DNA of 15,892 nucleotides. Origin: Polynucleobacter sp. Its GTDB lineage: Bacteria; Pseudomonadota; Gammaproteobacteria; Burkholderiales; Burkholderiaceae. The notes under the pieces were generated by a model that was given only the letters and a program-made list of their open reading frames with translations, was not told where the DNA came from and ran no database searches. The DNA is taken from positions 1-15,892 of the forward strand of contig SSFP01000061.1 in the NCBI GenBank assembly GCA_008015455.1. The letters are read 5' to 3'. Of this stretch, positions 1-14,710 are shown piece after piece. Each line of letters starts with the position of its first letter. Position 1 is the first letter of the stretch. A program made the translations under genes and the position numbers.

Positions 1-59
1 AATGAGGAACAACTTAAACACATGAGCGATGATATGACTCAAAGAAGAAAAATTAATTA

Positions 60-791
60 TTAATGTCCACAACCACAACTAGTTGTAGCAGCATGGGAAG
101 TGCCAACATCGTCACACTCTGCTTCAAAGATAGGGAATAAAATATTATTTTCTAAATGAATATGGTTCATTAAATCATTCCTAAGTTGGTCTAAACCTGC
201 ATATAAAGCTCTCCATGTGTTACATGCCCCGACGGGTGGAACACAATCATTAGTTAACTTAGACAATTCATCTAGCGTTTTACCATGATCCAAATGCTCC
301 AATCGCATCATACTGATTGGCTGAACAACAAATGGATTACCGCCTTGTTTCATTATTGGGAACAAAACATTCTCTTCTTTTTTCATATGACAAATTAAAT
401 CAGCATCCATATGCTCAAGAAAGCTTGAGAGACCTTTGGGAACATCAGGATTATCTTTGTGCACCGCCTCAACTCTGGCGGCCATTCGAATTAATTCTGG
501 CAATTGCTCACGATGAACCTCATGATATCTAGTTAAGATGTAATCAATTAGCTCTGATGGTGACTTGTCATGGTCAGACTCATCAACTCTTTCAAGTTTT
601 GCTAAATCTAATAAAAGGCTGTCAATATTCACGTTTTTCTTTGCAGCTGCTTCCCTTAAACTAATATGGCCGCCACAACAAAAATCAATCTTGTGCTTTC
701 TAAACAAAGCAGTAGCGCCTGGAATATTCACAGCAAAATCCCCTACTGCTGTTGATGGCTCAAATACAAACTTTTCATTTACATTTGACAT
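60..791 (-). CDS. ytfE: Iron-sulfur cluster repair di-iron protein (YtfE/RIC/ScdA family)
   Basis: The translation matches remembered E. coli YtfE blocks: ALFRK..D.CCGG; RYH..HREQLPEL; VH...P.VPKGL; HM.KEE..LFP..KQG; PIS.M..EH; AC.TW.A.Y.G...L..DLM.HI.LENN.LFP. I chose the ATG at 791 over 809 because AAGGAG lies 7 nt upstream of it. There is an extra Cys/His-rich C-terminal tail (TSCGCGH). Confidence 0.93.
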   Translation of the reverse strand: MSNVNEKFVFEPSTAVGDFAVNIPGATALFRKHKIDFCCGGHISLREAAAKKNVNIDSLLLDLAKLERVDESDHDKSPSELIDYILTRYHEVHREQLPELIRMAARVEAVHKDNPDVPKGLSSFLEHMDADLICHMKKEENVLFPIMKQGGNPFVVQPISMMRLEHLDHGKTLDELSKLTNDCVPPVGACNTWRALYAGLDQLRNDLMNHIHLENNILFPIFEAECDDVGTSHAATTSCGCGH

Positions 792-836
792 ACAATTCTC
801 CTTAAACATTCATTTGATGTGAATGTATTGTCATTT

Positions 837-859
837 AAAATTCATATAAAATGAATGTT
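837..859. promoter_or_regulatory. Putative NsrR operator (11-1-11 inverted repeat) in the divergent ytfE-nsrR intergenic region
   Basis: The site AAAATTCATAT-A-AAATGAATGTT contains a perfect ATTCAT-N5-ATGAAT core at 840-856. Against the remembered NsrR consensus AANATGCATTT-N-AAATGCATNTT it matches about 9/11 and 10/11 per half-site. It lies 46-68 nt upstream of ytfE and 25-47 nt upstream of nsrR. Confidence 0.6.
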
Positions 860-883
860 TAGATTTGATTTAGGACAAAATTA

Positions 884-1285
884 GTGCAATTAACACAATG
901 GACCGATTATTCCCTCAGAGTATTAATGTATTGCGCCAAGAATAGTGATCGAGATACCCCCATAACGATCATGGAGATTCTTGAAAGACACCAAATATCA
1001 AAAAGTCATTTAACAAAAATTGTTTCATTCCTATCAAATACTGGGTACCTCAAGACAACAAGAGGTAGAAATGGTGGGATTTCAATTGCAAGACCACCCA
1101 GAAACATTAGCGTAGGTGAAGTTGTACGAATGACAGAATCAAATTTTGAAATTGTCGAATGTTTTAATAAAAAAACGAACTCATGCTCGATTACATCTAC
1201 TTGTAAACTAAAGCATCTATTACAAAATGCAACAAACGCATTTATATCCAAATTAGACCAAGTGACGCTTGATCAAATCTGTTAA
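884..1285 (+). CDS. nsrR: Rrf2-family transcriptional repressor, NsrR-like (NO-sensing Fe-S regulator)
   Basis: It has the Rrf2 N-terminus MQLT.WTDY.LRVLMY and a wHTH (ISKSHLTKIV..L...GYL.T.RGRNGG). Three clustered Cys (C-x6-C-x5-C in ECFNKKTNSCSITSTC) fit NsrR/IscR cluster ligands. The start is GTG. The gene is divergent from ytfE, a classic NsrR target. Confidence 0.88.
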   Translation: MQLTQWTDYSLRVLMYCAKNSDRDTPITIMEILERHQISKSHLTKIVSFLSNTGYLKTTRGRNGGISIARPPRNISVGEVVRMTESNFEIVECFNKKTNSCSITSTCKLKHLLQNATNAFISKLDQVTLDQIC

Positions 1286-1297
1286 ATCAATATATTT

Positions 1298-1663
1298 ATG
1301 ATCAATACAACACCCCATGTTGCATGGCTCTTAGTCCCATTTGCAATTTTTCTCGGATATAAACTTCGAGTTTCTCGGGCTTATCGGTTTCAAAATCGGG
1401 GGGAAGAGCTTCTTAAAAATCAAATTATCAATAGCCTATCCTCACCTTCATGGCATCTACTAAACAATATCACTCTAAAAACAGTTAACGGAACAACTCA
1501 AATTGACCATATTTTGGTGTCCCGCTATGGTGTATTTGTAATTGAAACCAAACACTACTCAGGTTGGCTTTTTGGTGGTGCCACATCTAAAGAATGGACT
1601 CAGGTGATTTATGGCACAAAACATCGCTTTCAAAAATCAAATATCTCAAAGGACTTAATGTAG
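1298..1663 (+). CDS. NERD (nuclease-related domain) protein, apparently C-terminally decayed or frameshifted
   Basis: It has an N-terminal TM helix followed by the NERD core: GEELL...L......LLNN..L....GTTQIDHILVSRYGVFVIETKHYSGWLFG....EWTQ. The frame stops right after HRFQ. The expected continuation (KYLKGLNVELL) reads in the overlapping ORF 1594-1779 in another frame. Confidence 0.6.
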   Translation: MINTTPHVAWLLVPFAIFLGYKLRVSRAYRFQNRGEELLKNQIINSLSSPSWHLLNNITLKTVNGTTQIDHILVSRYGVFVIETKHYSGWLFGGATSKEWTQVIYGTKHRFQKSNISKDLM

Positions 1664-1775
1664 AGCTTTTAACTGAAAACCGCATGCAGTTTTGCGTTGG
1701 CCGCCTTGAGTGTCAGCGACTAGCACTTACGCAACAAACTGATATCGAACATCAGACACACATTCAAAGCAGATT

Positions 1776-2072
1776 TTAAGAGTTTGGTTTTCTCTTGGGC
1801 AATCCAACTGGATTATCGATAACTAATTCCGTACTTGCTTTAACAACAAGATATGCAACGCAACCGCCTTCTTGCGCCTTTATATCAAATTCCTCAACCG
1901 TATTACAGAGATATACCTCGCTTGAACACTCAGTACAAAAAGCAATGTTAGGTTTTTCGGTCTTTTCAAGCTCATCCCAAGTCTTTGCGCAGTAATAATC
2001 CAGTGGGCAACGCTCAACAGAGAATAAATCACGACTTGCAAGCACAGTACTTTTTTTATTATCGCCAGTCAT
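1776..2072 (-). CDS. Small Cys-rich hypothetical protein (98 aa), possible zinc-ribbon-like
   Basis: The ORF lies 16 nt downstream of the lipoprotein ORF on the same strand. It has paired cysteines (C..DYYC, FCTEC, LC, GGC). I recognise no family. Confidence 0.45.
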   Translation of the reverse strand: MTGDNKKSTVLASRDLFSVERCPLDYYCAKTWDELEKTEKPNIAFCTECSSEVYLCNTVEEFDIKAQEGGCVAYLVVKASTELVIDNPVGLPKRKPNS

Positions 2073-2088
2073 AACTTACATCAAGTTT

Positions 2089-2465
2089 TTAGTCATATGA
2101 TTTACATGCATTTCCACTATGCTTCCAGCTCGTAATGAGCTTGTTCACAATTGTGAAAGTTACAGTACAAGAATATGCGTATGGAATAGCCTGCGTGCCT
2201 CCAGAAGTGTTGGTATAAGCCTTACCTCCAATATACGTAGTTGTTGTTACCGGTGGTTGACCAGGTATATAACCAAACTCGGAACGAGAGTACGTTAGGA
2301 ATCTCACGCCATCTGCTTCATAACTACCCTGAGGAATACCCTCTTCAGCCACAAGCTGACTTTCAGTTTTACCTAAATAGCCATTTAACTTTTTTCAAAG
2401 TTTGCTGCTGTTGCACATCCAGCCAGAAATGACATAACCAGAAGTAATGCAAAAATTAATCTCAT
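2089..2465 (-). pseudogene. Lipoprotein gene interrupted by a frameshift in an A6 homopolymer
   Basis: The ATG at 2465 encodes MRLIFALLLVMSFLAGCATAANFEKS*, which is a signal peptide plus LAGC lipobox. The stop at 2385-2387 falls just after an A6 run (T6 at 2390-2395 on the + strand). A different frame then continues KKLNGYLGKTESQLVAEEG..., which is the 87-aa ORF 2089-2352. Confidence 0.6.
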
Positions 2466-2513
2466 ATATGACGTATGCATTCAAACCATTAGTAATTAAT
2501 GTTTAATTTATCA

Positions 2514-2525
2514 CAGCCAAAAACT
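2514..2525. repeat. Left copy of 12-bp direct repeat AGCCAAAAACTT (candidate attL core)
   Basis: It is identical to 12295-12306. The flanks are also similar (TGTTTAATTTA upstream here versus TGTTAATTTA there). A G-run block follows on the same side in both copies. Confidence 0.4.
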
Positions 2526-2601
2526 TATTTTTTATAACTACACTAATCAAACGAGCAAAATCTAGTGCATAGGTGAGATTAGGTACCATCAAACCAAAAA
2601 T

Positions 2602-2621
2602 GGGGGGGCGGGTATGGGGGG
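2602..2621 (+). other. G-run block G7-C-G3-TAT-G6 (G-quadruplex-capable on +, C-rich on -)
   Basis: Read directly: tgggggggcgggtatgggggg, sitting in an otherwise AT-rich spacer. A weaker relative, gggggtggtattggagg, lies at 12319-12335. Confidence 0.5.
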
Positions 2622-2733
2622 TCGGCCTAGCAGAAATCATCATGGAGTACCCCCTGTCTAAACTTTGACATCATCCTTCAGATTTTTTATTACTTGTGAC
2701 GATTAGTAATACAGTAGGTGGCATCTGCATGTT

Positions 2734-2774
2734 GGGTATTTGGGTGATACCCAGTGGGTGAGGTTAACTCACCC
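2734..2774. repeat. Twin GC-rich hairpins
   Basis: The first hairpin is GGGTAT-ttgggtg-ATACCC (2734-2752). The second is GGGTGAG-gttaa-CTCACCC (2756-2774). Neither has a flanking T-run on either strand. Confidence 0.55.
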
Positions 2775-2921
2775 AATAATAGTGACTTACTAAATCTTCC
2801 CAGTTATATACGTCACCAACATACGCAACCTTGATATGGTTTTAGTTAGAAGATACTCAAATGGTGGGTAGATAGGCGGGTACATATTTAATAAATAAAA
2901 AACCCCAAGATAATCAATAAC

Positions 2922-3329
2922 TTGGTGTTATATTTGGCGGAGAGGATATTAATCGAATACAAAGATCGTGAAATAAAACAAAAATTTGCCGTATATCAAA
3001 ACTCTATAACTGGTGAAATAAAAATAGTTGGTGACTATAGATCAATAATTAGTAAGACCTCTGAATTACACGAAGAAGTATGGCAAGAGGTAATTCCTTT
3101 TACGTATTACTATGCCAACTATCAAGAAGAGCCTGTTGCAGCATACTTAATTCCTAAGGACCTAAAAGATAATTCGGAAGTTTTTATTCCAGACCCTATT
3201 GAAGATCTAATTGGCAGCACTTGGAATCAAGGAGACTGCTACAGAGCAACAAATGTCACAGGCAAGGTTGTTAGTAAAAAAATAATTCTTAATCCTAAAT
3301 CAATCGAACGAAGTGATTTTATTGGTTAA
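2922..3329 (+). CDS. Hypothetical protein (135 aa), weakly supported
   Basis: It is a long ORF but has only TTG starts (2922 or 2934). It has no ATG, no clear SD and no recognisable motifs. It converges on the 3374-5127 operon. Confidence 0.35.
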   Translation: MVLYLAERILIEYKDREIKQKFAVYQNSITGEIKIVGDYRSIISKTSELHEEVWQEVIPFTYYYANYQEEPVAAYLIPKDLKDNSEVFIPDPIEDLIGSTWNQGDCYRATNVTGKVVSKKIILNPKSIERSDFIG

Positions 3330-3373
3330 TTTAAAAACCCTATTAAATGTCAGAACATACTTTTTTTAATTCT

Positions 3374-3739
3374 TTAATGCTTCACAACATAATCACCCAT
3401 TGTTGTATAAACTTTAATCTCTTTGCAACCAGATTCTGGAAAGCTTGAGGTTAGATATGAAGCCACAAGGTTGATAACCTCAAACGAAACCGCCTCAATC
3501 TCTTGCGCCCACTTAATTGAGACGGCAATACCATCACCAAAGTCATCATCCTCAAATTCAATCTCATAAGGATCATCAATAAATCCCAGCGTATACAAGC
3601 TCTTTGCCCAATCGATAAATGATTGAACAAACTTGTCGCTAGGTACAGCTCCTTCTTCAAATACCAAATTAAGCCCGTAAACCTTGTTTACTTCCATTAA
3701 GTGTTCGCAAGGTTCTGCAAATAAATTTACGTTATTCAT
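3374..3739 (-). CDS. Small acidic hypothetical protein (121 aa)
   Basis: The ATG at 3739 is preceded by AAAGGGA, 14 nt after the stop of the upstream gene. The protein is very Asp/Glu-rich (EIEFEDDDFGDG). It is the third gene of a tight operon. Confidence 0.7.
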   Translation of the reverse strand: MNNVNLFAEPCEHLMEVNKVYGLNLVFEEGAVPSDKFVQSFIDWAKSLYTLGFIDDPYEIEFEDDDFGDGIAVSIKWAQEIEAVSFEVINLVASYLTSSFPESGCKEIKVYTTMGDYVVKH

Positions 3740-3753
3740 AACCAATCCCTTTC

Positions 3754-4287
3754 TTATTTGTTTTCGATATATTTAAATTCGTCTTTACGCATTGTTCGTA
3801 TCCACGTCTTAATAGTTCTAACCCCAACTTCATAATGACGTGCTGAAGCAGCAATACTTTCAAAGCGTCCAGCTGGCGTCAATACAGCTCGTACACCTGG
3901 TTGCAACTTTTTACGATCTTCATCTGACAGAGGGTTTGCATAACTAAATTGTTGAGGGCACAAAACTAACCACTCTTTCAAAGTAGCCACATCAATGTCA
4001 TAGCTTTTAGCTGCTGCTTTCAAAGTTTGGAATTGTCCCTGCGGTGTAATAACTGCAATGGACTGACCGTTGCTAGCACCCCAATTGCCGGGTCGAGTAC
4101 GCATGCCAGATTCATATTGCTCCTTAACAATGCGCCTCATTTTGTCACAATGATTAACATCCCATTCAATATTACGTATTGGATGATCTGTCATCATTCG
4201 CTGCTTATGATTAGACCATTTTGAAAATTCATCAAATGGGACTTTTGTCCCATTTGCCATAGTTACATATAATGTTTCGCGCGCCAT
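3754..4287 (-). CDS. DNA-binding protein with two NUMOD1/IENR1-like HTH repeats (177 aa)
   Basis: An internal duplication is visible: IAVITPQGQFQTLKAAAKSYDIDVATLKEWL and RAVLTPAGRFESIAASARHYEVGVRTIKTWI. This fits the remembered pattern tP.G.F.S...AA....v...ti..W of homing-endonuclease DNA-binding modules. A strong SD, AAGGGGAA, lies 9 nt after the ATPase stop. Confidence 0.75.
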   Translation of the reverse strand: MARETLYVTMANGTKVPFDEFSKWSNHKQRMMTDHPIRNIEWDVNHCDKMRRIVKEQYESGMRTRPGNWGASNGQSIAVITPQGQFQTLKAAAKSYDIDVATLKEWLVLCPQQFSYANPLSDEDRKKLQPGVRAVLTPAGRFESIAASARHYEVGVRTIKTWIRTMRKDEFKYIENK

Positions 4288-4296
4288 AATTTCCCC

Positions 4297-5127
4297 TTAT
4301 TCATCATTCAACAAACCGCTATCAGCCATGGAACGCCAGTCGTTAGGATTAGCCTGCATAAGAGATGCAAGCTTCATTGCAAGACGCAAGCTGATTTTAT
4401 GTAAGCGATCCAAGTTATCGCCAATGTAATCAAGAATTTCTGATTGCTGAGCACCACTAAGACCAAAGCTATTAAGTAGCCCCTTTTTCACAACCATAAA
4501 ACAAACTTGTAAGTACAAGCTCTCATTAGTACCATCAGAAATCTGAAGGCAGTAGCTACGATCCTTTAAAGCGTCCAGATGTTCTTGCAGTTTGCTTTTT
4601 TTGCGATTGAAGCCGATGTTTGAGATCAGCACTACGCTCCCGTTAAAGTCAAAACCTGATGGCAATCCCATTGACAGCACAGTTGCGCTTGAAGACTCCC
4701 AATTAACGCGACGTGTAGGTTTAGTATCCATCGCCGCTTTTAACAAGTTAATGCCTTCAATCTTGCTAAACACCGAATCGATATCGTCTAGGACTAGCAC
4801 TTCGCCAGTATTGCGATATTGATACAGGTTGCCATACAAACTCAGAGGCGTCATATGTCCAGCGACAACTTTATAGTTATCGACCTGCGAATACTTCTGC
4901 AAATATGACTCGACTGAAAAGGTCTTACCAACACCAGCGGGACCATTAACGATTACGCTGCGATACTGCCCTACTGCGATACCCTGAATATAGCTTTCAA
5001 CATCAGCATATTTCTGCTCAATGCTGCTAAAGTCCATAGTGTCATAGAACGTTGAAAAGCCATCAATAACACCAAAAAAGCCGTTATGAACAGGTGAAAC
5101 ATTTACTGCATTTGTAATATGTGTCAT
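4297..5127 (-). CDS. AAA+/P-loop ATPase (276 aa), family not recognised
   Basis: It has Walker A (NGPAGVGKTFS), Walker B (VLVLDDID), a sensor-1-like VVLISN and a sensor-2-like ALKDRS. The SD GAGAGGAA lies upstream of the ATG at 5127. Confidence 0.85.
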   Translation of the reverse strand: MTHITNAVNVSPVHNGFFGVIDGFSTFYDTMDFSSIEQKYADVESYIQGIAVGQYRSVIVNGPAGVGKTFSVESYLQKYSQVDNYKVVAGHMTPLSLYGNLYQYRNTGEVLVLDDIDSVFSKIEGINLLKAAMDTKPTRRVNWESSSATVLSMGLPSGFDFNGSVVLISNIGFNRKKSKLQEHLDALKDRSYCLQISDGTNESLYLQVCFMVVKKGLLNSFGLSGAQQSEILDYIGDNLDRLHKISLRLAMKLASLMQANPNDWRSMADSGLLNDE

Positions 5128-5312
5128 TTACATATTCCTCTCTAGAAATTAATTAAAAAAAATAAATCGACAGCTGTGCGCTTTGAAATGGCACGAGCTG
5201 CTTACAGACTGAGTTGTTAAAGAGCAAACTGTCACGCACATGAGTGCTTAAGAAGCGGCTGCAGCGATGGCAAAAATCGTTTGTTTTCACCATGACTTAA
5301 CTATATTCGGAT

Positions 5313-5361
5313 GTTGACTAATATTAAATTGACTGAAATAATTTCAATTAAGTTAGTCAAC
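5313..5361. promoter_or_regulatory. Nested palindromic operator/promoter upstream of the 301-aa gene
   Basis: The outer arms are perfect 9-bp repeats: GTTGACTAA (5313-5321) and TTAGTCAAC (5353-5361). They enclose a third TTGACT (5329-5334) and the palindrome GAAATAATTTC (5335-5345). TTGACT(5314)-N17-AATAAT is a plausible sigma70 promoter. Confidence 0.45.
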
Positions 5362-5375
5362 AAAAAGGTAAAAGA

Positions 5376-6281
5376 ATGACTAAAAATTCCCTGGCTTTAC
5401 AGAGGTCAGATCTGCAGAAGAACGGCAAGTTCGTAGAGGAGCATCGTCTATACAGGTTTTGGTTTGAGTTTTTGGCCTTAAGCCCTAGCTATGAATTAGC
5501 CAGGCGCTATCGTTCAACAAAGGGAAGGCTTACCAAAGAAGATGCCGCAAGACTGCCAGCAGACTTTGATCGAGTGCTTGAGATTTACGATACCTTTGGT
5601 AATGTGCAGGAATTTCTATTTAAAACTTGGTGGGTTGATCGCGCCGTTGAGCTATTTGGCATTTCTGGCGCACCGTCAAAAACAGTGTCGATATATAAAT
5701 TTGCCAATGGCACAAATCCAGATAAGGAAAAAGTTAATGCAGCAGTAGGCAAGTATCTTGACGCAACAAGACTAAAACAAAATAAACCCCCTGCTATCCT
5801 GTTATCAATACCGCTTAATGCAACCAGACAACAAGTACTCAAAGAGATTAAGACCTTGCTTGATGAGCATATTCAAAAGCCTAATAAACCAGCCAAACCT
5901 CTATTTGAATTAGCGGATAAGGATGTTCATGTTCAAAACATTATTGATGCTATGAGTGTTTTATGGATTAGAGCAGCACGACCAGATTGGCGACTATGGC
6001 AAATTGGTGAAGAGTGCAAGATTAAGAAAACAAGAAAGTCCAGAAGCCCCGATCCTGACGCTTTTGATAGCATGCGTACCCTAGAACAAATGACATCTAG
6101 AAAACTAAAGACAGCTATGTATATTGCAGAAAACGCTGCTCGCGGGATTTTCCCCTCTCAAGCCAAGCCAAAATCTTATGTGAAATTTGACCCCACGGAA
6201 TTCAGCAAGATCCTTTCTAAAAAGACAGCCTGGATTAAAAAGGAAAAAGCTCGTATCTTAGAACAAGCTAAATTAAATTAA
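5376..6281 (+). CDS. Hypothetical protein (301 aa), basic C-terminal half
   Basis: This is a long ORF with ordinary-looking composition. I recognise no catalytic motif. Its 3' end overlaps the convergent recombinase gene by 9 nt. Confidence 0.7.
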   Translation: MTKNSLALQRSDLQKNGKFVEEHRLYRFWFEFLALSPSYELARRYRSTKGRLTKEDAARLPADFDRVLEIYDTFGNVQEFLFKTWWVDRAVELFGISGAPSKTVSIYKFANGTNPDKEKVNAAVGKYLDATRLKQNKPPAILLSIPLNATRQQVLKEIKTLLDEHIQKPNKPAKPLFELADKDVHVQNIIDAMSVLWIRAARPDWRLWQIGEECKIKKTRKSRSPDPDAFDSMRTLEQMTSRKLKTAMYIAENAARGIFPSQAKPKSYVKFDPTEFSKILSKKTAWIKKEKARILEQAKLN

Positions 6282-6839
6282 TTCAACCGCATTTCGAAGA
6301 ATATCAGGGCGAGTATCAATATATCTTTGGGTAGTAGACATTTGACTGTGCCCTGCTAGCTGCATCATCACACGCACTGACACACCCTTTTCGCTTAATC
6401 GAGTTAAAAACCCTCGCCTTCCACTATGACTAGTTGCTCCATTTAAACCAGCTTGCCTATATAAGCCATTCACAATATGAGTCAGCGTATTGGGAGTAAA
6501 TCCTTGTGCTCTCTGTGTAGGAAATAATGGTTTATGGATATCTCTGGGTGGATGCGCTGCGATGTATTGGGCTAATTCAGCACGAATACGCTCTGATAAC
6601 AAAACAGTTCTACTTTTATTACCTTTAGTTTGGGTAGCGTTTAAACGAATTTCACTTAAGACCTGCTTATCTGTGCTTAAAACATCGCTGTAGCGCACAC
6701 TAGCCACTTCACCAATACGCATACCTGCCCAATGGGTTAACAGCAATATAACGCGGTTACGCTGCGCTGCTTTAGTCGTTGCTGCGAAGTCCAAAACCCT
6801 CTGCAACTCTTGATCTGTGAGTGTTCTTGCCTGTGCCAT
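6273..6839 (-). CDS. Minimal tyrosine recombinase, catalytic domain only (188 aa, FimB/FimE-sized)
   Basis: The catalytic residues sit in the expected contexts: AGMRIGE (Arg), KGNKSRTV (Lys), HSGRRGF (His-x-x-Arg), AGHSQMSTTQRY (His and Tyr nucleophile). There is no N-terminal core-binding domain. The SD AAAGGAGAA lies upstream of the ATG at 6839. Confidence 0.9.
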   Translation of the reverse strand: MAQARTLTDQELQRVLDFAATTKAAQRNRVILLLTHWAGMRIGEVASVRYSDVLSTDKQVLSEIRLNATQTKGNKSRTVLLSERIRAELAQYIAAHPPRDIHKPLFPTQRAQGFTPNTLTHIVNGLYRQAGLNGATSHSGRRGFLTRLSEKGVSVRVMMQLAGHSQMSTTQRYIDTRPDILRNAVELI

Positions 6840-6866
6840 TGAATTCTCCTTTGATTACACATTACC

Positions 6867-6895
6867 TACTATATTTAAGTTAATTGTGTAGTCAA
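6867..6895 (-). promoter_or_regulatory. Putative sigma70 promoter of the small recombinase gene
   Basis: On the minus strand, TTGACT (6895-6890) is followed by a ~17-nt spacer and TATAGT (6872-6867). This lies about 30 nt upstream of the SD. Confidence 0.35.
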
Positions 6896-7057
6896 AGCTG
6901 CCAAATTCCTACCGAAAATAGCCACAAATACATTCAGATTGATGGGTTTATCAACCAAAAAATACTGATATTTTTCTATTTGAATTTCAAATGGTTACAA
7001 GCACTCAACACTTAAGTGTATTTTTATGTTGAGTTCAAAAACTACAATTTTTGTTGT

Positions 7058-7085
7058 ATTTCTGTGGCAGAAAAGCCACAAATTA
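7058..7085. promoter_or_regulatory. Candidate tyrosine-recombinase core site (dyad TGTGGC-N6-GCCACA with extended arms)
   Basis: The site reads ATTTCTGTGGC-agaaaa-GCCACAAATTA. A further half-site, GCCACAAATAC, lies at 6921-6931. The architecture (two inverted arms and a 6-bp spacer) is that of lox/FRT/dif-type sites. Confidence 0.4.
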
Positions 7086-7351
7086 AACACTTAGATCATT
7101 GAGAAATAGATGAAATATATAAGAACTATTAATGAGTGAGCTAAAGCTCACTAGCTCTTCGCTAACGCTCATCGCATTTTTCTTTTTTTATTAATTATGA
7201 TTACCTCTTTCACTAGGGAGCACAAGCCAAGCCCTGTTAAAGGGCTCAACTTATGCTGAACCTTTCACTGAGGTTTTCAACTGATATACACACAACTTGC
7301 TAATGCAAGATAGGTAGGTTTTGCTATCTCCTATTACGTGCCGTCATACGC

Positions 7352-7393
7352 AGCTAATTTACAGTCTATATCAGGAACCTTTGTAAATTAGCT
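7352..7393. repeat. Perfect 12-bp inverted repeat with 18-nt loop
   Basis: The arms are AGCTAATTTACA (7352-7363) and TGTAAATTAGCT (7382-7393). I estimate well under one such repeat would occur by chance in this window. Confidence 0.6.
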
Positions 7394-7820
7394 TGTGGGT
7401 TTGTTTCATTGGCTTTCCCACTCACTTTCAGCCTAGACGAATTATTCAATCATTCGACAATTTAGCCTACATTCACGCATTTTGCTGCGCTACCAACTTA
7501 TACAACATTGCAAACGCTACTGCCACAGAGGGGCGTCGTTTAAAGCATCCAAAACAGCCAGAGTCTTGGGTAGTGCAATGAGGCCAGATAGTAAGAGATC
7601 CGAATTGCATACCGTCACACATCAGAACGGGTTTTGCAGCACTATTACCTTCGGCGTGCCAACCTTTACCTTACTTATATGCTTTTATTTAGCTTGAACA
7701 TAAAAACACCCAAAATTTTTTAGTTTCTGTTCAGGTAGCTAAAAACCGTCATTTTTCGGTTGTCCAGATCGTTTTTCAGATCATATTGTTGTGTTGCCCT
7801 AAATAAAGATGGAGAACACT

Positions 7821-8258
7821 ATGGCAACAATCGACAAACTTAACTTTGTAGCAACTCATAAGCCTATTCATCAGCCACCAGTTGTGCAGCGAAGAAACAA
7901 GCTGTCCAACAAGCTATGGGAACAGATTCAACTGGCTAAAAGTGAGCTAGATAGCAAACCACTGACTATTCACAAGAGAAAAACCGTTAAGGACACTGAA
8001 GGTAACTTAAAGAGTATTACTGTGCCTAAACGCATCAAACCTTGGTGGTTTGTCAGCAATGAAGGCAGGGTATGTATCTCAGTAAGATATGGATCAAAAA
8101 TCATCAGCCTAAAACCTGGCATGCCAAGTATTCAAGTCAACGATACACAAGAATTAATAGAGACACTGGAAATCATCAAAGCTGAAGTAGAAAAAGGTAG
8201 CTTTGATCAAGAAATTGAAGCTGCTAGTGGCGCACTGAAAGCCAACTTCAAGAAATAA
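7821..8258 (+). CDS. Hypothetical protein (145 aa)
   Basis: I preferred the ATG at 7821 over 7809 because GGAG (7811-7814) lies 6 nt upstream. It is the first gene of a plus-strand operon. I cannot name a family with confidence. Confidence 0.72.
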   Translation: MATIDKLNFVATHKPIHQPPVVQRRNKLSNKLWEQIQLAKSELDSKPLTIHKRKTVKDTEGNLKSITVPKRIKPWWFVSNEGRVCISVRYGSKIISLKPGMPSIQVNDTQELIETLEIIKAEVEKGSFDQEIEAASGALKANFKK

Positions 8259-8302
8259 ACCCTTCAAACGAGTCAAAATCGCAAGGTTCTGACTCGTCGA
8301 TA

Positions 8303-8327
8303 AGTATTACTTGAAGTAATACATTTT
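8303..8327 (+). terminator. Hairpin plus T-run (intrinsic terminator-like); a member of the recurring hairpin family
   Basis: The sequence is GTATTACTT-G-AAGTAATAC followed by ATTTTT. It is preceded by a second hairpin, CGAGTCA-N14-TGACTCG (8269-8296). Confidence 0.55.
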
Positions 8328-8348
8328 TACCGATGAGGCATAGCAAAA

Positions 8349-8714
8349 ATGAATCTTTCAAAAACCCATCTTTTGAATCAATTGGAGCAATTTATTGGCA
8401 CAGAGTTTTACTATCCACTCTGGCCTAATGTCATGCTCACGGATGGCACACGATTTTTAGCAGATACAGCTGGCTGCTTCTGGCTCATGGATGCCATTAC
8501 TAGCCACATTCAGAGATTGCCCAATAGAGAAGTCTTTACCAGTTGCCGACTGACCGTCAACAATGGCTCAGCAGTCTTAATTATTGATGATGGCAACAGC
8601 AATATCCTAGCCAGTCAAAAAATATCTTACACAGACTTCCCTTTAGACAGAATTCACTTATACGCCTGCTTTGATGGCAAGCAATGGATCATCATGCTAC
8701 CCAGTGAATACTAA
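8349..8714 (+). CDS. Small conserved mobile-element protein, DUF6876-like (family number from memory)
   Basis: The pattern F.GTE.YY......LTDG..FLADTAG.FWL.DAI.S ... DDGN.......I.YTDFPLD.I.L......I.MLPSEY matches a family I recall from conjugative plasmids and ICEs. Confidence 0.75.
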   Translation: MNLSKTHLLNQLEQFIGTEFYYPLWPNVMLTDGTRFLADTAGCFWLMDAITSHIQRLPNREVFTSCRLTVNNGSAVLIIDDGNSNILASQKISYTDFPLDRIHLYACFDGKQWIIMLPSEY

Positions 8715-8721
8715 ATACTTG

Positions 8722-9060
8722 ATGCGATTTTATGAATTCAAAACACAAAAACCACTCACACCCGATCAGGCAAGAATTAAGGCACTTAAAGATCAGGCGA
8801 CAAGGGCCAGATATGCTATTAAAGCCGAGCGAGCTAGACAAAAGATTAGTGCAGCACAAGCTACTCTTAGCGCCACTGAAAGTATGAGTACAACTTATAG
8901 AGCACAACATAAAAGTAAGAACGCCTATTCCGCTTGGGTAACAATTGGCACTTACGGAAGTTTCAATAGCGCACTCAGCGCTGTATTGCAAAAGAAGAAA
9001 CAAGGCTCCATTGCTGTACAAATACTTGATAGTAAGATGATGGTTGTTTACTCTGCTTAA
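8722..9060 (+). CDS. Hypothetical protein (112 aa)
   Basis: I took the ATG at 8722, 7 nt after the preceding stop, over the 8671 start that would overlap the upstream gene by 44 nt. No motifs are recognised and the SD is weak. Confidence 0.55.
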   Translation: MRFYEFKTQKPLTPDQARIKALKDQATRARYAIKAERARQKISAAQATLSATESMSTTYRAQHKSKNAYSAWVTIGTYGSFNSALSAVLQKKKQGSIAVQILDSKMMVVYSA

Positions 9061-9071
9061 AAGAGGGCTTA

Positions 9072-9728
9072 ATGCCTAAAACCATTATTTTTGATACCGA
9101 AACAACTGGTAAGAATGAACCCAAAATCATCGAAGCTGCCTGGCTAGAACTTGCTAGCATCAAACCCTTTGAAATTACCGATGGGTTTTGTGAAAGATAT
9201 AACCCAGGCAAGCCTATAGAATTAGGTGCGCTAGCCACACATCACATATTGGATGAAGAATTAGCAGACTGTAAACCTACTTCTGAATTTAAATTACCCA
9301 GCGATACGGAATACATCATTGGTCATAACGTCGATTACGACTGGAATGTATCTGGAAATCCTAATGTCAAAAGGATATGTACATTAGCTTTATCGAGAAA
9401 AGTATGGACAAATCTAGACAGCTACAGTCAAAGTGCACTTCTGTATCACCTAGATCGCGAAAATGCCAGAGAACAGCTTAAGCATGCTCATTCAGCACTA
9501 GCAGACGTCGGCATTTGCGCCGTTATCCTAGAAAACATCTGCCATTCTCTAAATATCGAGTCTATCGAACAACTATGGACTACCAGTGAAGCTGCTCGCA
9601 TTCCAACTGTGATGCCTTTTGGCAAACACAAAGGATTGCCTTTAAGTGAGGTACCCAGTGATTACAAAAATTGGTTATTGGGTACTGGAGATTTAGACTC
9701 CTATTTGCGGAAGGCTTTGGAACTTTAA
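9072..9728 (+). CDS. DEDDh 3'-5' exonuclease (DnaQ-like) with C-terminal DUF3820/QSregVF_b-like motif
   Basis: It has Exo I (IIFDTETTG), Exo II (GHNVDYDW) and Exo III (HSALADV). The C-terminal PFGKHKGLPLSEVPSDYKNWLL matches the remembered PFGK.KG.....P..Y..WL motif. The SD AGAGGG lies upstream. Confidence 0.9.
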   Translation: MPKTIIFDTETTGKNEPKIIEAAWLELASIKPFEITDGFCERYNPGKPIELGALATHHILDEELADCKPTSEFKLPSDTEYIIGHNVDYDWNVSGNPNVKRICTLALSRKVWTNLDSYSQSALLYHLDRENAREQLKHAHSALADVGICAVILENICHSLNIESIEQLWTTSEAARIPTVMPFGKHKGLPLSEVPSDYKNWLLGTGDLDSYLRKALEL

Positions 9729-9740
9729 ATACTTGAGCAA

Positions 9741-10781
9741 TTAGCCTAGGTTGCTTTGAGCAGCCTTAATCATTTTTTTTACCTCCAGGCTCTCGTTAAC
9801 AGAGTGAATTGTAATTTGAGGATTTTGTTTTACAAAAACTCGGAATACTTCATCTGCAAATGCCTGACCAATTGACTCAACACCTTTAAAATCTAAAAGA
9901 ACAGTCTTAAAACGATCTACACGATTTAATATTCGTTTTGCTTGGGAGCGTGAAATAAGCTGCCCACCTTCATATAAGGCTAGCTTAACTGGAACAATCG
10001 TTTTATTAAACGCGTAATCCTCATCTTCCGTACCACTAAAACTATCAAATACTTCACGCAGAGTTCTTTGAGAGTTGAGTGCAATTTTCATGACTACCCG
10101 CGTTCCCTTATGGCTCTTTTCATTGTGAAGCAAGAAGTCCATATCCGAACCATCGGCATGTGTAAAGACCAAGTCTCCAGAAAAAATAAAGAATTCATCA
10201 AAAGCGCGAGATGAAAAGAAGATTCCCTGGCCAGTATGATTGCTTGGATCCGTTGTTAGCTTTCCTTTACTCCACTCTAGTATTGATTCGCGTGGATCCT
10301 GCAGCTCTAATAGCCTTGCTATATGGTTAAAAATACCTTCGCCATTATCAGCAATTGAAATTGAAACAAAATCTGGCGTTCTTTCTACATGGATATAAAC
10401 ATCAGTGCCCTCTGAGTGATCAATCGCATTGTTTAAGATCTCAGTAAAACCATAATGACAAATATTGGCAATTTCTTTAGGCAAACCACTAAAGATTTCA
10501 CTAAAATCACGCGAATAAACCTCAGATTCCTCTAACCCTTTTAACTTAAATAAGCCATCATGAAATCGCTTGACTCCTAACTGATAAACCCGTGCTTTCG
10601 TACTACCACTAGAAGCTAAAAACCCATCCCTAACCAAAGCAGCAAAATGCGCATGAATTGCCTGCCTTGTTAAACCAAACTTCTCCATTGCCACATGAGC
10701 TAAATCAGCCTGATTGGCTTTAATACCATCCACTAAGAATTGACGAATCTCTTGGGAGCGCTTTGTATTGGCGAATTTCAT
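9741..10781 (-). CDS. Fusion protein: N-terminal wHTH + GHKL (HATPase_c, RsbW-like) + C-terminal STAS-like/DUF4325-like domain
   Basis: It has the N-box EILNNAIDHS, G1 box DNGEGI and G2 box TGQGIFFSS. The N-terminus is MarR/wHTH-like (FGLTRQAIHAHFAALVRDGFL). The C-terminus, RSQAKRIL...FKTVLLDFKGVESIGQAFADEVFRVF, resembles STAS-like DUF4325 (from memory). Confidence 0.82.
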   Translation of the reverse strand: MKFANTKRSQEIRQFLVDGIKANQADLAHVAMEKFGLTRQAIHAHFAALVRDGFLASSGSTKARVYQLGVKRFHDGLFKLKGLEESEVYSRDFSEIFSGLPKEIANICHYGFTEILNNAIDHSEGTDVYIHVERTPDFVSISIADNGEGIFNHIARLLELQDPRESILEWSKGKLTTDPSNHTGQGIFFSSRAFDEFFIFSGDLVFTHADGSDMDFLLHNEKSHKGTRVVMKIALNSQRTLREVFDSFSGTEDEDYAFNKTIVPVKLALYEGGQLISRSQAKRILNRVDRFKTVLLDFKGVESIGQAFADEVFRVFVKQNPQITIHSVNESLEVKKMIKAAQSNLG

Positions 10782-10790
10782 GTGAATTTT

Positions 10791-10850
10791 TTGTAAAGTT
10801 TTATAAGATTATTGTAAAGTTTTATAAGATTATTGTAAAGTTTTCATCCT
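10791..10850. repeat. 21-bp tandem repeat (2 perfect units plus 1 degenerate) overlapping the GHKL gene promoter
   Basis: TTGTAAAGTTTTATAAGATTA occurs at 10791-10811 and 10812-10832. A third unit begins at 10833 and diverges after 12 nt. On the coding strand, TTGTCA (10861-10856)-N18-TACAAT (10837-10832) places the -10 inside the repeats. Confidence 0.9.
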
Positions 10851-10881
10851 AAGATTGACAAGAAAATCATAAAAATTAGAC

Positions 10882-12234
10882 TCAGACATACTCTATAACC
10901 CTTTTAGCCAGCTTCTTACTAGGGTAATTTTCAGCAGCTTTACTATCCGCCTCGATGAGCTTTCTCGTATTAGTACCGCGTAATTGCTCAATAGCTTGGA
11001 TAACCTGTAAATGGCTATAGTGCTTTTCTATCATCAAAACACTCGTACCCATTTGCTTGGCCAGTGTATGAATAGGCACACTATCGTGAGTCAGCGAAAG
11101 CGTTGCATAGGTGTGACGTAGACTGTAGAAAACACGTTTTTGATTTGTCTTTGGATCTATCAGTAAGCCATGATCAGATAAGAAGTTATCAAACATATGG
11201 TTGAGGACGTCACTTAAATCTCTACCCTCTTTAGTTCTAAAAATATAGTCATCATTGGTAGGCTTAATTAACTCAGCTAGAGGATCTTTAATTGAACTCT
11301 TAACACCATAGTTTCTCAGTGCGATTCGCTCTAGCACTCTGATGCTAGGTAATCGTCCAATAATTTGTCTTTGACCAGTTTTACCTTTAACTGTCATCTC
11401 ACAGCTACGATTAAGACTGTGAACTTCAATAGCTTCACCATCTTCATCTAGCTGATCTGTCACTGTACTAATAGGATTCATCATGAAACGAATTTGCTTC
11501 CATTTCATATCCAATAGTTCAATACCAGGCCTAGCACCAGTATCCAAAAGCATTTCTACATAGTCACGCAGTATTTCTCTACGCTCTCTGATATCTCTGG
11601 TCTTGCCAGCGTCAATGTAAGGGGTCAGATTCCTTAATAAAGCCCTGACTTCATGTAATTCAAAGGCAGGTCTACGTTGAGATTCTTTGGTTTTACCGTC
11701 CAACTTAGGTCGATTGGATTCTGTTAAGTAACCCCTAACAATGGCCTCATCAAATACTCTATTAAATGCGGCATTTTGAGTCTTACGATGGCTATTAGAC
11801 ATAATCGAACCAAACTTAGCTTCACGATCACTGTAGTAATCGTTTAGAGCATCGTAATCAATATTAGTGATCAATCTTTGCCCTAGACTAGGCATGAAAT
11901 GATCTTTGATAATTCGGATGTAATCTTTATAGATAACCTTACCTAGGCCACCACGCATATCGCGTTCCATGCGATCAATAGCCAGCATGGCGATATCTTT
12001 AAAGCGTTTTGTGACCACAGGGATACCTGAACGCTTACGTATTTCAGCTTCTACCAATAGCTCTTTGGCTTTTGCTATGGCCAAATCAAATTTAGTTTCT
12101 TTGGTTGTGGCACGTATCCAGCGATTATCAATTTTGTAGCGACATTGCCATACCTGACTATGCTCACGCTGATACAGGGTTAGATTACGGTGGATTAATT
12201 GATGTGTAGTTTCTTTCTTAGTTGACATACACAT
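10882..12234 (-). CDS. Tyrosine integrase (phage/genomic-island type, 450 aa)
   Basis: The N-terminus is arm-binding-like (W.CRYKI.NRW.R.TT.). The catalytic blocks are LLDTGARPGIE, KGKTGQR, YSLRHTYAT and MIEKHYSH. An alternative start lies at 12228 (MSTKK). Confidence 0.93.
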   Translation of the reverse strand: MCMSTKKETTHQLIHRNLTLYQREHSQVWQCRYKIDNRWIRATTKETKFDLAIAKAKELLVEAEIRKRSGIPVVTKRFKDIAMLAIDRMERDMRGGLGKVIYKDYIRIIKDHFMPSLGQRLITNIDYDALNDYYSDREAKFGSIMSNSHRKTQNAAFNRVFDEAIVRGYLTESNRPKLDGKTKESQRRPAFELHEVRALLRNLTPYIDAGKTRDIRERREILRDYVEMLLDTGARPGIELLDMKWKQIRFMMNPISTVTDQLDEDGEAIEVHSLNRSCEMTVKGKTGQRQIIGRLPSIRVLERIALRNYGVKSSIKDPLAELIKPTNDDYIFRTKEGRDLSDVLNHMFDNFLSDHGLLIDPKTNQKRVFYSLRHTYATLSLTHDSVPIHTLAKQMGTSVLMIEKHYSHLQVIQAIEQLRGTNTRKLIEADSKAAENYPSKKLAKRVIEYV

Positions 12235-12292
12235 AATTTAGCTTCAGAGCCACATTAAGAGCAACCGAACTGGCAAGAAAACCAGTGTTAAT

Positions 12293-12314
12293 TTAGCCAA
12301 AAACTTGTGGCTAA
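12293..12314. repeat. Right copy of the 12-bp direct repeat inside a 7-8-7 dyad (candidate attR core)
   Basis: The dyad is TTAGCCA-AAAACTTG-TGGCTAA, and AGCCAAAAACTT (12295-12306) is identical to 2514-2525. It lies about 60 nt upstream of the integrase start. Confidence 0.4.
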
Positions 12315-12357
12315 GATTGGGGGTGGTATTGGAGGATTTGTGGAAGAAGTGTGGGGA

Positions 12358-12384
12358 GTGAGCGTTGCTTCAAGTAACACTTAG
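12358..12384 (-). repeat. Stop-codon-anchored hairpin element, copy 2
   Basis: The minus strand reads TAA-GTGTTACTT-G-AAGCAACGC-TCAC, followed by a C-rich, G-poor tract (TCCCCACACTTCTTCCACAAATCCTCCAATACCACCCCC). It starts at the stop of the 208-aa gene. Confidence 0.7.
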
Positions 12385-13007
12385 CCCGAACCTTTTTTAA
12401 CAAACAACTCCAACTCATAGAGTTTTTGTATAGCCAACTGACTAAGATCATTTCTGCCAGATACCTGAACTATCTGGATAAAAGCCAGCAATGCAAACAT
12501 CTGCCCCATTCTTAAAACCTCAATAATCTCTTCATCCAAGTAGTTTGGATCTATGGCATTACCTTTAACCCTTCTAGCAATCTGATGAATACCCCCATGG
12601 GTATAACTATTCATAGCAGCCCAAGCTTGTTTCTTTAGATCTGAGAGAGTTCCACTCTTGAAAGCAGGTAATCCTTCAACTTTCGAAAGAATCAAATCAA
12701 AGTTTCTAGCATATTCATCTCGTTCAAAAGCAGCCAATTCCTCATCAGAAGCACAATCTTTTAACCATACAGCCCTAACAAATGTTTCAAAGATTGAACG
12801 CACTAGAGCAAAGCCAGATCCATAGGCTCGCTTCTCGATTGCGCCAGTAATACCCGTGAAATAGTCGAGAACAACATCAAAAGCTGAGATTGCCAGTAAA
12901 AGTCTTCTGGTTTTAGGTAGCGGCACCCCATCCAAATGAACAAAGATCCATGTATGCAGATCCCGAGATTCTTGAAGAGTTTGTTCTAGCGTTGGATTTG
13001 TACTCAT
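12381..13007 (-). CDS. Hypothetical all-helical protein (208 aa)
   Basis: This is a clean ORF with a helix-prone sequence. No Rx4-6H HEPN motif was found and I cannot name a family. It has no clear SD and lies 72 nt downstream of the MBL gene. Confidence 0.65.
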   Translation of the reverse strand: MSTNPTLEQTLQESRDLHTWIFVHLDGVPLPKTRRLLLAISAFDVVLDYFTGITGAIEKRAYGSGFALVRSIFETFVRAVWLKDCASDEELAAFERDEYARNFDLILSKVEGLPAFKSGTLSDLKKQAWAAMNSYTHGGIHQIARRVKGNAIDPNYLDEEIIEVLRMGQMFALLAFIQIVQVSGRNDLSQLAIQKLYELELFVKKGSG

Positions 13008-13057
13008 ATCATCAGTTTAGGCTCAAACAACCTAATTGGATGAATTACTGGGAGGGG

Positions 13058-13084
13058 TGAGCGTTACTTAAAGTAACGCTTAAG
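13058..13084 (-). repeat. Stop-codon-anchored hairpin element, copy 1
   Basis: The minus strand reads TAA-GCGTTACTT-T-AAGTAACGC-TCAC-CCCTCCC. It starts at the stop of the MBL gene, in the same register as copy 2. Confidence 0.7.
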
Positions 13085-14087
13085 ACTTCGAAATACTCCA
13101 AATACCAAAATAACCTTGGTCATTAACCACCAACGATCCATCTTTGCTACTGTCTAAGGCAAATTTTTCATTCTCCACAAAAACATCTATCTGACTATCT
13201 GTGATCTCTAGAACTATATTGCCAGCCTGATTACTCGTGATTTTTGTGAGCCCTCTTCTGGTCCATTGCCCATAATCGATATACTCACTTGGAGCGCACC
13301 CAATAACGGTCAATTTAGGCTTTATAAAATCTAAAAAATCATAGCTTCTATCTGAATCTCTACCATGATGTGGCGCCAATAAAACCGCAATATCTTGAAC
13401 ATCATTTAGATGGTTTTCTTTTATATATTCAAAAGTTTTGTCATGCGCATCGCCACATATCAAAATATTGCCGCCGATACTTTTGTAAAGAAGAACATAA
13501 GACCCATCATTGATGTCATCACTTTTATTAGCATCATTTAGAAGATTGCTATTTGGCGCAAGAATATACAAGCCATCCCCTCCACTTGTGCCATCTTCAG
13601 CTTGGTTTGCATATTTAAATTTTGAATCTGCTAATGGAGTAACAACTTTCACATTCCCCTCTTTGCCAGCGATAACATTTTCATACCTATCCCAATCCTC
13701 TTCTAGGAATGGGCCTCCTTCAAAAGACGGTTTTTCTCGACGTAAGGTTGAATCCCAAAAATTTACTACGGTTACTTCGTCGAGCAGACGGTTAAAGCCA
13801 TCTAGATGATCCATATCAGGATGAGTAAGAATAAATCTGAAAATATTGCCAATATCTAAAGAAAGAAAATAATCAACTGAATTTGAGTTGCAATTGCACA
13901 TTCCATAATTGCCACTTACTTCTGATCCTTTGAGGGAAGGCGGCAAATAAACTGACTCAGAATAGGTCTCAATATTGCCATCACATATATCAATCATGGA
14001 AACATGACCACTTGCATGTTTGATAATTGTGCAGTCCCCTGGGTGTACATTTACAAAATGTACTTGGGCTTTATATTGATTACTCAT
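13080..14087 (-). CDS. Metallo-beta-lactamase-fold hydrolase, ComEC/Rec2 C-terminal-domain type (335 aa)
   Basis: The motifs are VNVHPGDCTII..., SMIDICDG, LTHPDMDHLDGF (the H-x-D-x-D-H variant typical of ComEC-type MBLs), ICGDAHD and LLAPHHGRDSD (PHHGS-like). The C-terminal ...ITSNQAGNIVLEITD fits the remembered rTd..G.i pattern. Confidence 0.88.
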   Translation of the reverse strand: MSNQYKAQVHFVNVHPGDCTIIKHASGHVSMIDICDGNIETYSESVYLPPSLKGSEVSGNYGMCNCNSNSVDYFLSLDIGNIFRFILTHPDMDHLDGFNRLLDEVTVVNFWDSTLRREKPSFEGGPFLEEDWDRYENVIAGKEGNVKVVTPLADSKFKYANQAEDGTSGGDGLYILAPNSNLLNDANKSDDINDGSYVLLYKSIGGNILICGDAHDKTFEYIKENHLNDVQDIAVLLAPHHGRDSDRSYDFLDFIKPKLTVIGCAPSEYIDYGQWTRRGLTKITSNQAGNIVLEITDSQIDVFVENEKFALDSSKDGSLVVNDQGYFGIWSISKS

Positions 14088-14544: not shown

Positions 14545-14647
14545 GGCTATGCTTTATTAAGTTAACTCAAAACTCAATATTGCCATGAATAACCTTACAA
14601 ATTAATAAAAATAACAACCCGAAGGTTGGTATTTTGTACGACCTGAG

Positions 14648-14688
14648 ACATACTTTACAGTTTATACCGGACACATACTTTACAGTTT
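14648..14688 (+). repeat. Two direct copies of ACATACTTTACAGTTT in the IS left end
   Basis: The 16-nt perfect copies lie at 14648-14663 and 14673-14688, with a 25-bp period. They sit just upstream of the transposase SD AAGGAGGA. Confidence 0.75.
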
Positions 14689-14710
14689 TTGGCATAAGGA
14701 GGATCAACTT

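Follow-up and report, generated by a model that had tools for sequence, protein, structure and literature searches.

A NrdC.10-type AAA+ ATPase and a NUMOD-type partner form a conserved two-gene module on a Polynucleobacter integrative island

The DNA analyzed in this study, referred to below as the window, is a stretch of 15,892 nucleotides from Polynucleobacter sp. (assembly GCA_008015455.1, contig SSFP01000061.1, positions 1 to 15,892 of the forward strand). Three closely spaced genes on its minus strand encode an AAA+ ATPase of 276 amino acids (5127..4297), a NUMOD-type partner protein of 177 amino acids (4287..3754) and an acidic protein of 121 amino acids that starts at the ATG at 3739 (3739..3374). 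The intergenic gaps are 9 nt between the ATPase and partner genes (4296-4288) and 14 nt between the partner and acidic genes (3753-3740), and purine-rich Shine-Dalgarno sites are located directly 5' of the three starts (GAGAGGAA, AAGGGGAAA and AAAGGGA, respectively). An original prediction, made from the sequence alone, had described this arrangement as a tight three-gene operon. Re-reading of the coordinates and ribosome-binding sites bore out the strand, the two gaps and the Shine-Dalgarno sites. The close spacing was confirmed, but terminators gave the operon label no support, as no terminator-like site was found between the three genes or 3' of the acidic gene; the term operon is used for the three genes on the basis of their spacing alone. 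As described below, the conserved unit at this locus is a two-gene module, composed of the ATPase and its partner, and not a set of three genes.

The ATPase had initially been considered an orphan. Its sequence places it instead in phrog_1250, the PHROG family of phage T4 NrdC.10, which is annotated as "unknown function". The profile match is near full length (E 3.9e-66, 224 bits) and aligns residues 35-272 with profile positions 84-325 of 327. A tblastn search with the ATPase found relatives in 1309 phage records, mostly of T4-like Straboviridae; 1224 of these matches cover at least 80% of the query, and several of the records listed carry an nrdC.10 annotation. Identity to NrdC.10 of T4-like phages (Acj9, nt-1) is ~36%. 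The family was known before, but only as an unnamed, uncharacterized phage ATPase: in T4-type phages nrdC.10 has been described as a conserved open reading frame (ORF) with a weak AAA match, and as uncharacterized (PMC1524935). No Pfam model scored above its cut-off with the window ATPase, the best being AAA_22 (24.9 bits against a cut-off of 27, residues 56-91 only), and NCBIfam provided nothing usable. Isolate genomes seldom carry the ATPase: it was found in 2 of 61 relatives, and the order sample of 401 genomes yielded it only in the window's own genome.

The Walker A, Walker B, sensor 1 and sensor-2-like motifs that had been recognized in the ATPase are present and contain residues that are invariant across 59 homologues. 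Walker A reads GPAGVGKT (residues 62-69, 4921..4944 of the minus strand; G62, G65, G67 and K68 invariant), and Walker B reads VLVLDDID (residues 110-117, 4777..4800, minus strand; D114, D115 and D117 invariant). The same set of homologues also retains R139 and W143 (4699..4713, minus strand) without exception. These two residues belong to a pre-sensor-1 beta-hairpin, formed in the model by strands 139-142 and 158-161, which may face the pore and contact DNA. Three further invariant residues lie within 4384..4620 on the minus strand, namely sensor 1 N170 (4620-4618), the arginine finger R190 (4560-4558) and sensor 2 R248 (4386-4384). As judged from sequence, all residues required for oligomer-dependent ATP hydrolysis are in place.

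An AlphaFold2 model of the ATPase, built from 59 sequences, has a mean predicted local distance difference test (pLDDT) score of 89.8 and a predicted template modeling score of 0.84, and it has the typical AAA+ architecture, including a helical lid. The invariant motifs and the model together identify the protein as a member of the AAA+ superfamily: more than 500 AAA+ chains were found by Foldseek at E < 0.001, and Z scores in VIA reached 13.2. Its best Foldseek matches are NorQ/CbbQ (MoxR, template modeling (TM) score 0.55-0.62), RFC, RuvB and ORC/Cdc6. In the Foldseek-independent VIA search, DmpR, NorQ, NtrX, CbbQ, NifA, FlrC, MuB, RuvB and Hda tie at Z 11.8-13.2. The ATPase profile, when compared with PDB sequences, yielded only P-loop-level RFC matches (E 0.012).

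Several known AAA+ groups were tried as a home for this protein and rejected. An IstB or DnaC-type loader was discarded, with no IstB_IS21 among Pfam matches at E <=0.1 and with the NUMOD-type partner and a RovC-like protein as neighbors. TniB and TnsC were discarded as well, since there was no TniB match at E <=0.1, AAA_22 remained below its cut-off, and no transposase or TniQ gene is adjacent. When the 59-sequence ATPase profile was compared with Mu B by hhalign, the alignment covered 22 columns at the P-loop with a probability of 57%, and membership of the MuB family by sequence was rejected. The sigma-54 enhancer-binding proteins were rejected despite Z scores of 12.6-13.2 to DmpR, NtrX, NifA and FlrC, as neither the sequence nor the model contains a GAFTGA-like motif or a helix-2 insert in the stretch from Walker A to Walker B. 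The suggested parallel with MuB, TnsC and IstB therefore holds as a loose analogy of logic but not as family membership, and the check for IstB or TniB orthology that had been proposed along with it yielded no evidence for membership in the IstB, TniB or MuB groups.

Two AAA+ systems are among the closest for comparison. MuB, and TnsC with TniQ, would share with the window pair the combination of a small AAA+ ATPase acting on DNA and a DNA-binding module, and there is fold similarity to MuB (Z 11-12; in VIA, Z 12.3 over 148 residues for 4bs1 and Z 11.2 over 194 residues for 8xvb), although sigma-54 activators, MoxR, RuvB and Hda score equally high. MuB itself carries a helix-turn-helix at its N-terminus. 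Unlike MuB and TnsC, the window ATPase has no transposase partner and no sequence relationship to them that is detectable beyond the P-loop, and the NrdC.10 family is spread through lytic, non-transposing phages. RuvB with RuvA resembles the pair in having a motor and a separate adaptor, and RuvB chains (Z 12.3, TM 0.49-0.54) also have the pre-sensor-1 beta-hairpin and lack a helix-2 insert. However, the window ATPase does not have the winged-helix C-terminal domain of RuvB, its partner is not RuvA-like, and the match is tied with those of many AAA+ clades.

The partner is a basic protein (isoelectric point (pI) 9.6). Its N-terminal motif, YVTMANGTKVPFDEFSKWSNHKQR (residues 7-30, 4198..4269, minus strand), is conserved in 42 distinct partners with the consensus V.L.NG..V.W.EF..WS..KQ. 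It is followed by two copies of a NUMOD1-like repeat of ~40 residues with the consensus V.TP.G.F.S...AA..Y.V....K.W. The first copy comprises residues 77-116 (3940..4059, minus strand), in which V79, T81, P82 and G84 are invariant, and the second comprises residues 133-173 (3769..3891, minus strand), in which V135, T137, P138, G140 and F142 are invariant. Outside the N-terminal motif the partners diverge, with lengths of 133-325 amino acids and DNA-binding modules that vary in number and kind. More distant partner classes have other N-terminal peptides, and some of them contain Cys-rich, zinc-finger-like motifs.

Two homing-endonuclease-type DNA-binding repeats and no nuclease domain had been predicted for this protein, and at the level of the family this description is right, because positional orthologues pass the Pfam cut-offs for NUMOD1, NUMOD3 and the I-HmuI NUMOD-like module (22.8 bits for NUMOD1 and 20.4 bits for NUMOD3) and none of them has a nuclease domain. 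A profile from the window partner's family finds the partners of loci L004 (NUMOD1, 23.4 bits; NUMOD3, 35.9 bits), L007 (NUMOD1, 29.7 bits) and L009 (NUMOD1, 33.7 bits). The partners of L048 (NUMOD3, 39.8 bits), L051 (NUMOD1, 25.7 bits) and L060 (I-HmuI NUMOD-like, 31.3 bits), which belong to ATPases just 25-30% identical to that of the window, also pass. The window partner itself matches only HTH_28 (18.6 bits against a cut-off of 25), over residues 143-167 in the second repeat, and has no NUMOD1 match in Pfam. Neither it nor any of the 17 partners scanned with Pfam has a GIY-YIG or HNH nuclease domain. The partner profile found nothing among PDB sequences, and tblastn with the partner found nothing in phage records. 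Like the homing endonucleases I-TevI and I-HmuI, the partners are modular, with NUMOD1, NUMOD3 and I-HmuI NUMOD-like units joined in series and varying in number, and some have Cys4-like motifs. Unlike these enzymes, the partners examined carry a short conserved N-terminal peptide in place of the GIY-YIG or HNH domain, and the window partner has diverged to below the Pfam cut-offs.

Loci encoding the ATPase were collected by searching one genome per species and IMG/VR, and loci encoding the partner by searching metagenomes. A partner homologue is the next gene downstream of the ATPase in all eight genome loci, which include Polynucleobacter, Limnohabitans and metagenome-assembled genomes of Burkholderiaceae. 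In the reverse direction, the ATPase is immediately upstream of the partner in 51 of 58 metagenomic loci fetched by partner, most of the others being short or truncated contigs. The pair also occurs on viral contigs of IMG/VR (L013-L015, L018, L066, L067 and L069-L073). The gaps between the two genes are mostly -53 to +18 nt. The prediction of an ATPase with a DNA-binding adaptor has therefore stood up well: the short-form ATPase has an obligate, translationally coupled partner, a pairing seen in dozens of independent loci, and the module is common to lytic phages, small phages and integrative islands.

The short form differs from the form present in T4-type phages. The latter ATPases are 335-377 amino acids long and possess an extra N-terminal domain of ~85 residues, which is missing in the window ATPase: ~35 residues precede the AAA+ core of this protein, and nothing in it aligns with profile positions 1-83. 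Among 64 distinct short-form ATPases, 49 had a partner detectable with hidden Markov models (HMMs) and 60 had a co-oriented gene within 60 nt, whereas the corresponding counts for 21 distinct long, T4-type ATPases were 0 and 11. The AAA+ cores of the two forms are homologous over their full length and have the same invariant Walker A and B motifs, hairpin R and W, sensor 1, arginine finger and sensor 2. In place of the N-terminal domain, the window ATPase has the separate, translationally coupled NUMOD-type partner, and it is encoded on a bacterial integrative island rather than in a phage genome. The idea that the N-terminal domain of the long form is a fused N-terminal peptide of the partner was rejected (hhalign probability 3%). 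The split arrangement, in which the ATPase is paired with a NUMOD protein devoid of a nuclease, adds a novel form to the NrdC.10 family.

The third gene has a different history. Its product is strongly acidic, as had been predicted, with a pI of 4.13 and a net charge of about -15. It has no family match in Pfam, PHROG, NCBIfam or PADLOC, and its matches in the Atlas are below meaningful scores. A word-based search of 5.8 billion clusters found three relatives, and five were recovered from 1.8 billion representatives by exhaustive searching with HMMER; one of the five, the 560-amino acid protein P0143, is a PKD-repeat protein and was discarded as spurious. A tblastn search with the acidic protein gave no match in any of the 66 other pair-bearing loci, and scans of metagenome and viral contigs for the acidic gene produced no locus. 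The three genes are thus not found together elsewhere, the outcome that had been set beforehand as refuting the three-gene unit, and nothing supports the proposal that the acidic protein is a DNA mimic, an inhibitor or an immunity factor.

The end of the partner gene and the next gene (2922-3329 in the window) are ~45 bp apart in the related islands L086 and L081, as compared to 433 bp in the window; the acidic gene occupies that 433-bp interval and represents a ~390-bp insertion relative to the two islands. In other islands, the slot after the partner carries different small genes. The acidic gene is rare, lineage-restricted cargo in a variable slot, outside the conserved module. The gene that follows (2922-3329, plus strand; 135 amino acids) is 90% identical at the DNA level to L086:6565-6848 and 85% identical to L081:1626-1776. 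The partner gene of these metagenomic islands is just 66% identical, which indicates a mosaic junction marking the end of the conserved module.

The module resides on an integrative island of ~9.8 kb (2515..12306). Its ends are marked by two exact copies of the direct repeat AGCCAAAAACTT, one at 2515 and the other at 12295, where chance alone would give 0, and an integrase of 450 amino acids with homologues in related loci is encoded at one end (10882-12234). The pair is found on islands of the Polynucleobacter/Limnohabitans type, and the backbone that recurs in related loci comprises the pair, a 301-amino acid protein, a 188-amino acid recombinase, DUF6641, DUF6876, a DnaQ-like exonuclease and the integrase. 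The recombinase (6273..6839, minus strand) is a tyrosine recombinase consisting of the catalytic domain only (Pfam Phage_integrase, E 9e-30) and is a neighbor of the pair in 7 of the 8 loci from genomes and in 28 of the 58 from metagenomes. In L004, which is from the same genus, this neighboring recombinase is 86% identical to that of the window, whereas the ATPase is 32% and the partner 26% identical. Exchange of the pair as a cassette is suggested by this locus, because both proteins have diverged together beside a closely similar recombinase. Outside the island, an open-ended ORF of 393 codons (14711-15892, plus strand) resembles, by eye, an insertion sequence-type transposase, with an N-terminal helix-turn-helix and an integrase-core-like region.

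The 301-amino acid protein is basic and is encoded divergently from the pair (5376..6281, plus strand). Its gene adjoins the pair at L004-L006, L008 and L010 among the genome loci and at 28 of 58 metagenomic loci. It has no family match, and a Foldseek search with its model (pLDDT 87.9) returned nothing at E <=0.001. Its best structural match is RovC (6xz5), which is weak (Z 4.5 over 153 residues), and an independent Atlas lead, PF20109, agrees with it. This protein may be a RovC/FseA-like transcription activator of the island, which we regard as a lead and not as a finding.

Between the ATPase and the 301-amino acid protein genes is a divergent control region (5128..5375). A perfect 10-nt inverted repeat, TGTTGACTAA (5312-5321) and TTAGTCAACA (5353-5362), is located near the start of the 301-amino acid protein gene, and the palindrome ACAGCTGT (5170-5177) lies upstream of the ribosome-binding site of the ATPase gene. 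At the corresponding position in related islands, just before the ribosome-binding site of their ATPase genes, the dyad ACAGC-N6-GCTGT is kept in L004, L083, L086 and L089-L094, and L005 has ACGGT-N6-GCCGT. This arrangement looks like an operator. An ORF of 46 codons with a CxxC motif (5153-5293, minus strand) separates the promoter region from the ATPase gene; its place is taken in several related islands by an ORF of 108 codons or one of 250-296 codons (motif TKTLIGQADD..AAHE.F), neither of which has a Pfam family. In some related islands an ORF of 194 codons lies just 5' of the ATPase gene (L096:4534-5118, with a GNAT acetyltransferase model match, and L115:1692-2276).

A second non-coding region, the gene-free stretch of ~700 bp at 7130-7808, contains several dyads, including one with perfect 12-nt arms at 7352-7363 and 7382-7393, and a 10-nt inverted repeat is formed by 7061-7070 and 7520-7529. 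Rfam gave no match in the window, including this stretch. With regard to viruses, the pair was seen directly 5' of the large-terminase and portal genes on three IMG/VR contigs (L015:2205-7101, L016:5926-11534 and L018:5968-10549), the first of which also has a small-terminase candidate there. The neighbors of the pair on small viral contigs are mostly without a Pfam or PHROG family.

The explanation that we favor, with a probability of roughly 0.6, is that the pair is a two-gene, sequence-targeted AAA+ DNA machine of the island, which most likely starts or assists replication or recombination-type processing of the island's own DNA. The partner would read a specific DNA sequence through its NUMOD1-type helix-turn-helix heads, and its conserved N-terminal peptide of 25-30 residues would recruit or nucleate the 276-amino acid ATPase. 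The ATPase would then form an ATP-hydrolyzing oligomer on that DNA; its intact arginine finger implies hydrolysis between subunits. Once assembled, it could open or remodel the DNA, or load something onto it. In T4-like phages, the same ATPase has the extra ~85-residue N-terminal domain in place of a separate partner. The pair is a backbone function of the 9.8-kb island, which also encodes the RovC-like regulator and the small tyrosine recombinase, and its likely job would be carried out at a defined site. We infer the contact through the N-terminal peptide, the oligomerization on DNA and the role itself, the last on thin evidence, and favor replication or recombination because nothing else on the island is a candidate for a function of this kind.

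Several observations weigh against this explanation. No experiment or known homologue assigns a function to the ATPase, and T4 nrdC.10 is itself uncharacterized (PMC1524935). The fold searches do not place it in a functional clade, as scores of Z 11-13 are shared by sigma-54 activators, MoxR, MuB, RuvB and Hda. The window's own partner is below every Pfam cut-off. The identities of ATPases and partners correlate (Spearman rho 0.84), but this value is inflated by shared ancestry. The non-coding DNA of the island (the control region and the gene-free stretch within 6840-7810) has no iteron-like origin repeats and contains only short dyads. Finally, the pair is directly 5' of the terS-terL-portal genes in three small viral contigs, a position that fits packaging or late transcription equally well.

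A role of the pair in DNA packaging or late-gene control is an alternative that we consider unlikely. According to this proposal, the partner would bind at a late promoter or a pac/cos-like site, where the terminase or RNA polymerase would be aided by the ATPase, with the island being a phage satellite that exploits or redirects its helper. The pair precedes the small terminase, large terminase and portal genes in L015, L016 and L018, and in L013 it lies at the border with a virion structural gene; moreover, the island is small, encodes an integrase and has no replication or transfer genes recognizable with Pfam and NCBIfam, and sigma-54 activators are among the top structural matches of the ATPase (Z 12.6-13.2). 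However, these structural ties are not discriminating and the ATPase has no GAFTGA loop. In addition, L015 already has a separate small-terminase candidate, and in T4-like and other large phages the gene is located in the nrd or early region, far from the terminase. Searches with Pfam, PADLOC, NCBIfam and PHROG found no capsid, terminase or packaging-interference gene on the island.

Still less probable is that the ATPase selects targets for transposition or integration in the manner of MuB, TnsC or IstB, with the partner as a site adaptor following TniQ/TnsD logic, in the service of the small tyrosine recombinase. The catalytic-domain-only recombinase is indeed a conserved neighbor, the MuB chains 4bs1 and 8xvb are among the structural matches, and one phage record labels a homologue as "DNA transposition protein". 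Against this stand the P-loop-restricted Mu B alignment and the Pfam results given above (no IstB_IS21 or TniB at E <=0.1, AAA_22 below cut-off), the lack of an adjacent IstA, TniA or MuA-type transposase, and the presence of the pair in many phages without a recombinase nearby. A three-gene system of anti-phage defense or conflict, in which the ATPase and a DNA sensor would detect foreign DNA and the acidic protein would act as inhibitor, immunity factor or DNA mimic, is very improbable: the location of the genes on a mobile island, the strong negative charge of the acidic protein and variable DNA-binding heads that could reflect an arms race speak for it, but the acidic gene is missing at every one of the 66 other loci and so cannot be a required immunity partner, the pair is part of an island-family backbone, and a defense role for the pair is unlikely because none of the three proteins has a convincing match in PADLOC-DB v2 that would link them to ATPase-based defense sensors (the best for the ATPase are E 0.011 and 0.023 over ~40-50 residues at the P-loop, with no match for the partner or the acidic protein), neither member of the pair has an effector domain of the nuclease, toxin or membrane-protein kind, and virulent T4-like phages, as well as others, carry the pair.

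Beyond the island, it is possible, and we propose it tentatively, that the NrdC.10 family comprises widespread, sequence-programmable AAA+ DNA machines of phages and small mobile islands, aimed at an element-specific site by nuclease-free arrays of homing-endonuclease heads that lineages swap and reshuffle. Such a machine might be a replication initiator in split form or a hitherto undescribed kind of site-specific DNA opener, and this reading, if true, would offer a first way into the function of a quasi-core T4 gene. The new elements in this analysis are the refutation of the trio, the insertion of the acidic gene, the counts for short and long ATPases, the NUMOD modules in distant partner classes and the terminase-adjacent position of the pair in small phages; in practical terms, the three genes proposed as one system are not a unit. 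Well over a thousand sequenced phages, T4 among them, encode NrdC.10-type ATPases. The split form points to a motor that is aimed at specific DNA by a modular, homing-endonuclease-derived reader, which provides a testable hypothesis. The pair also defines the backbone of a family of integrative islands of small size in Polynucleobacter and Limnohabitans, which are abundant in freshwater.

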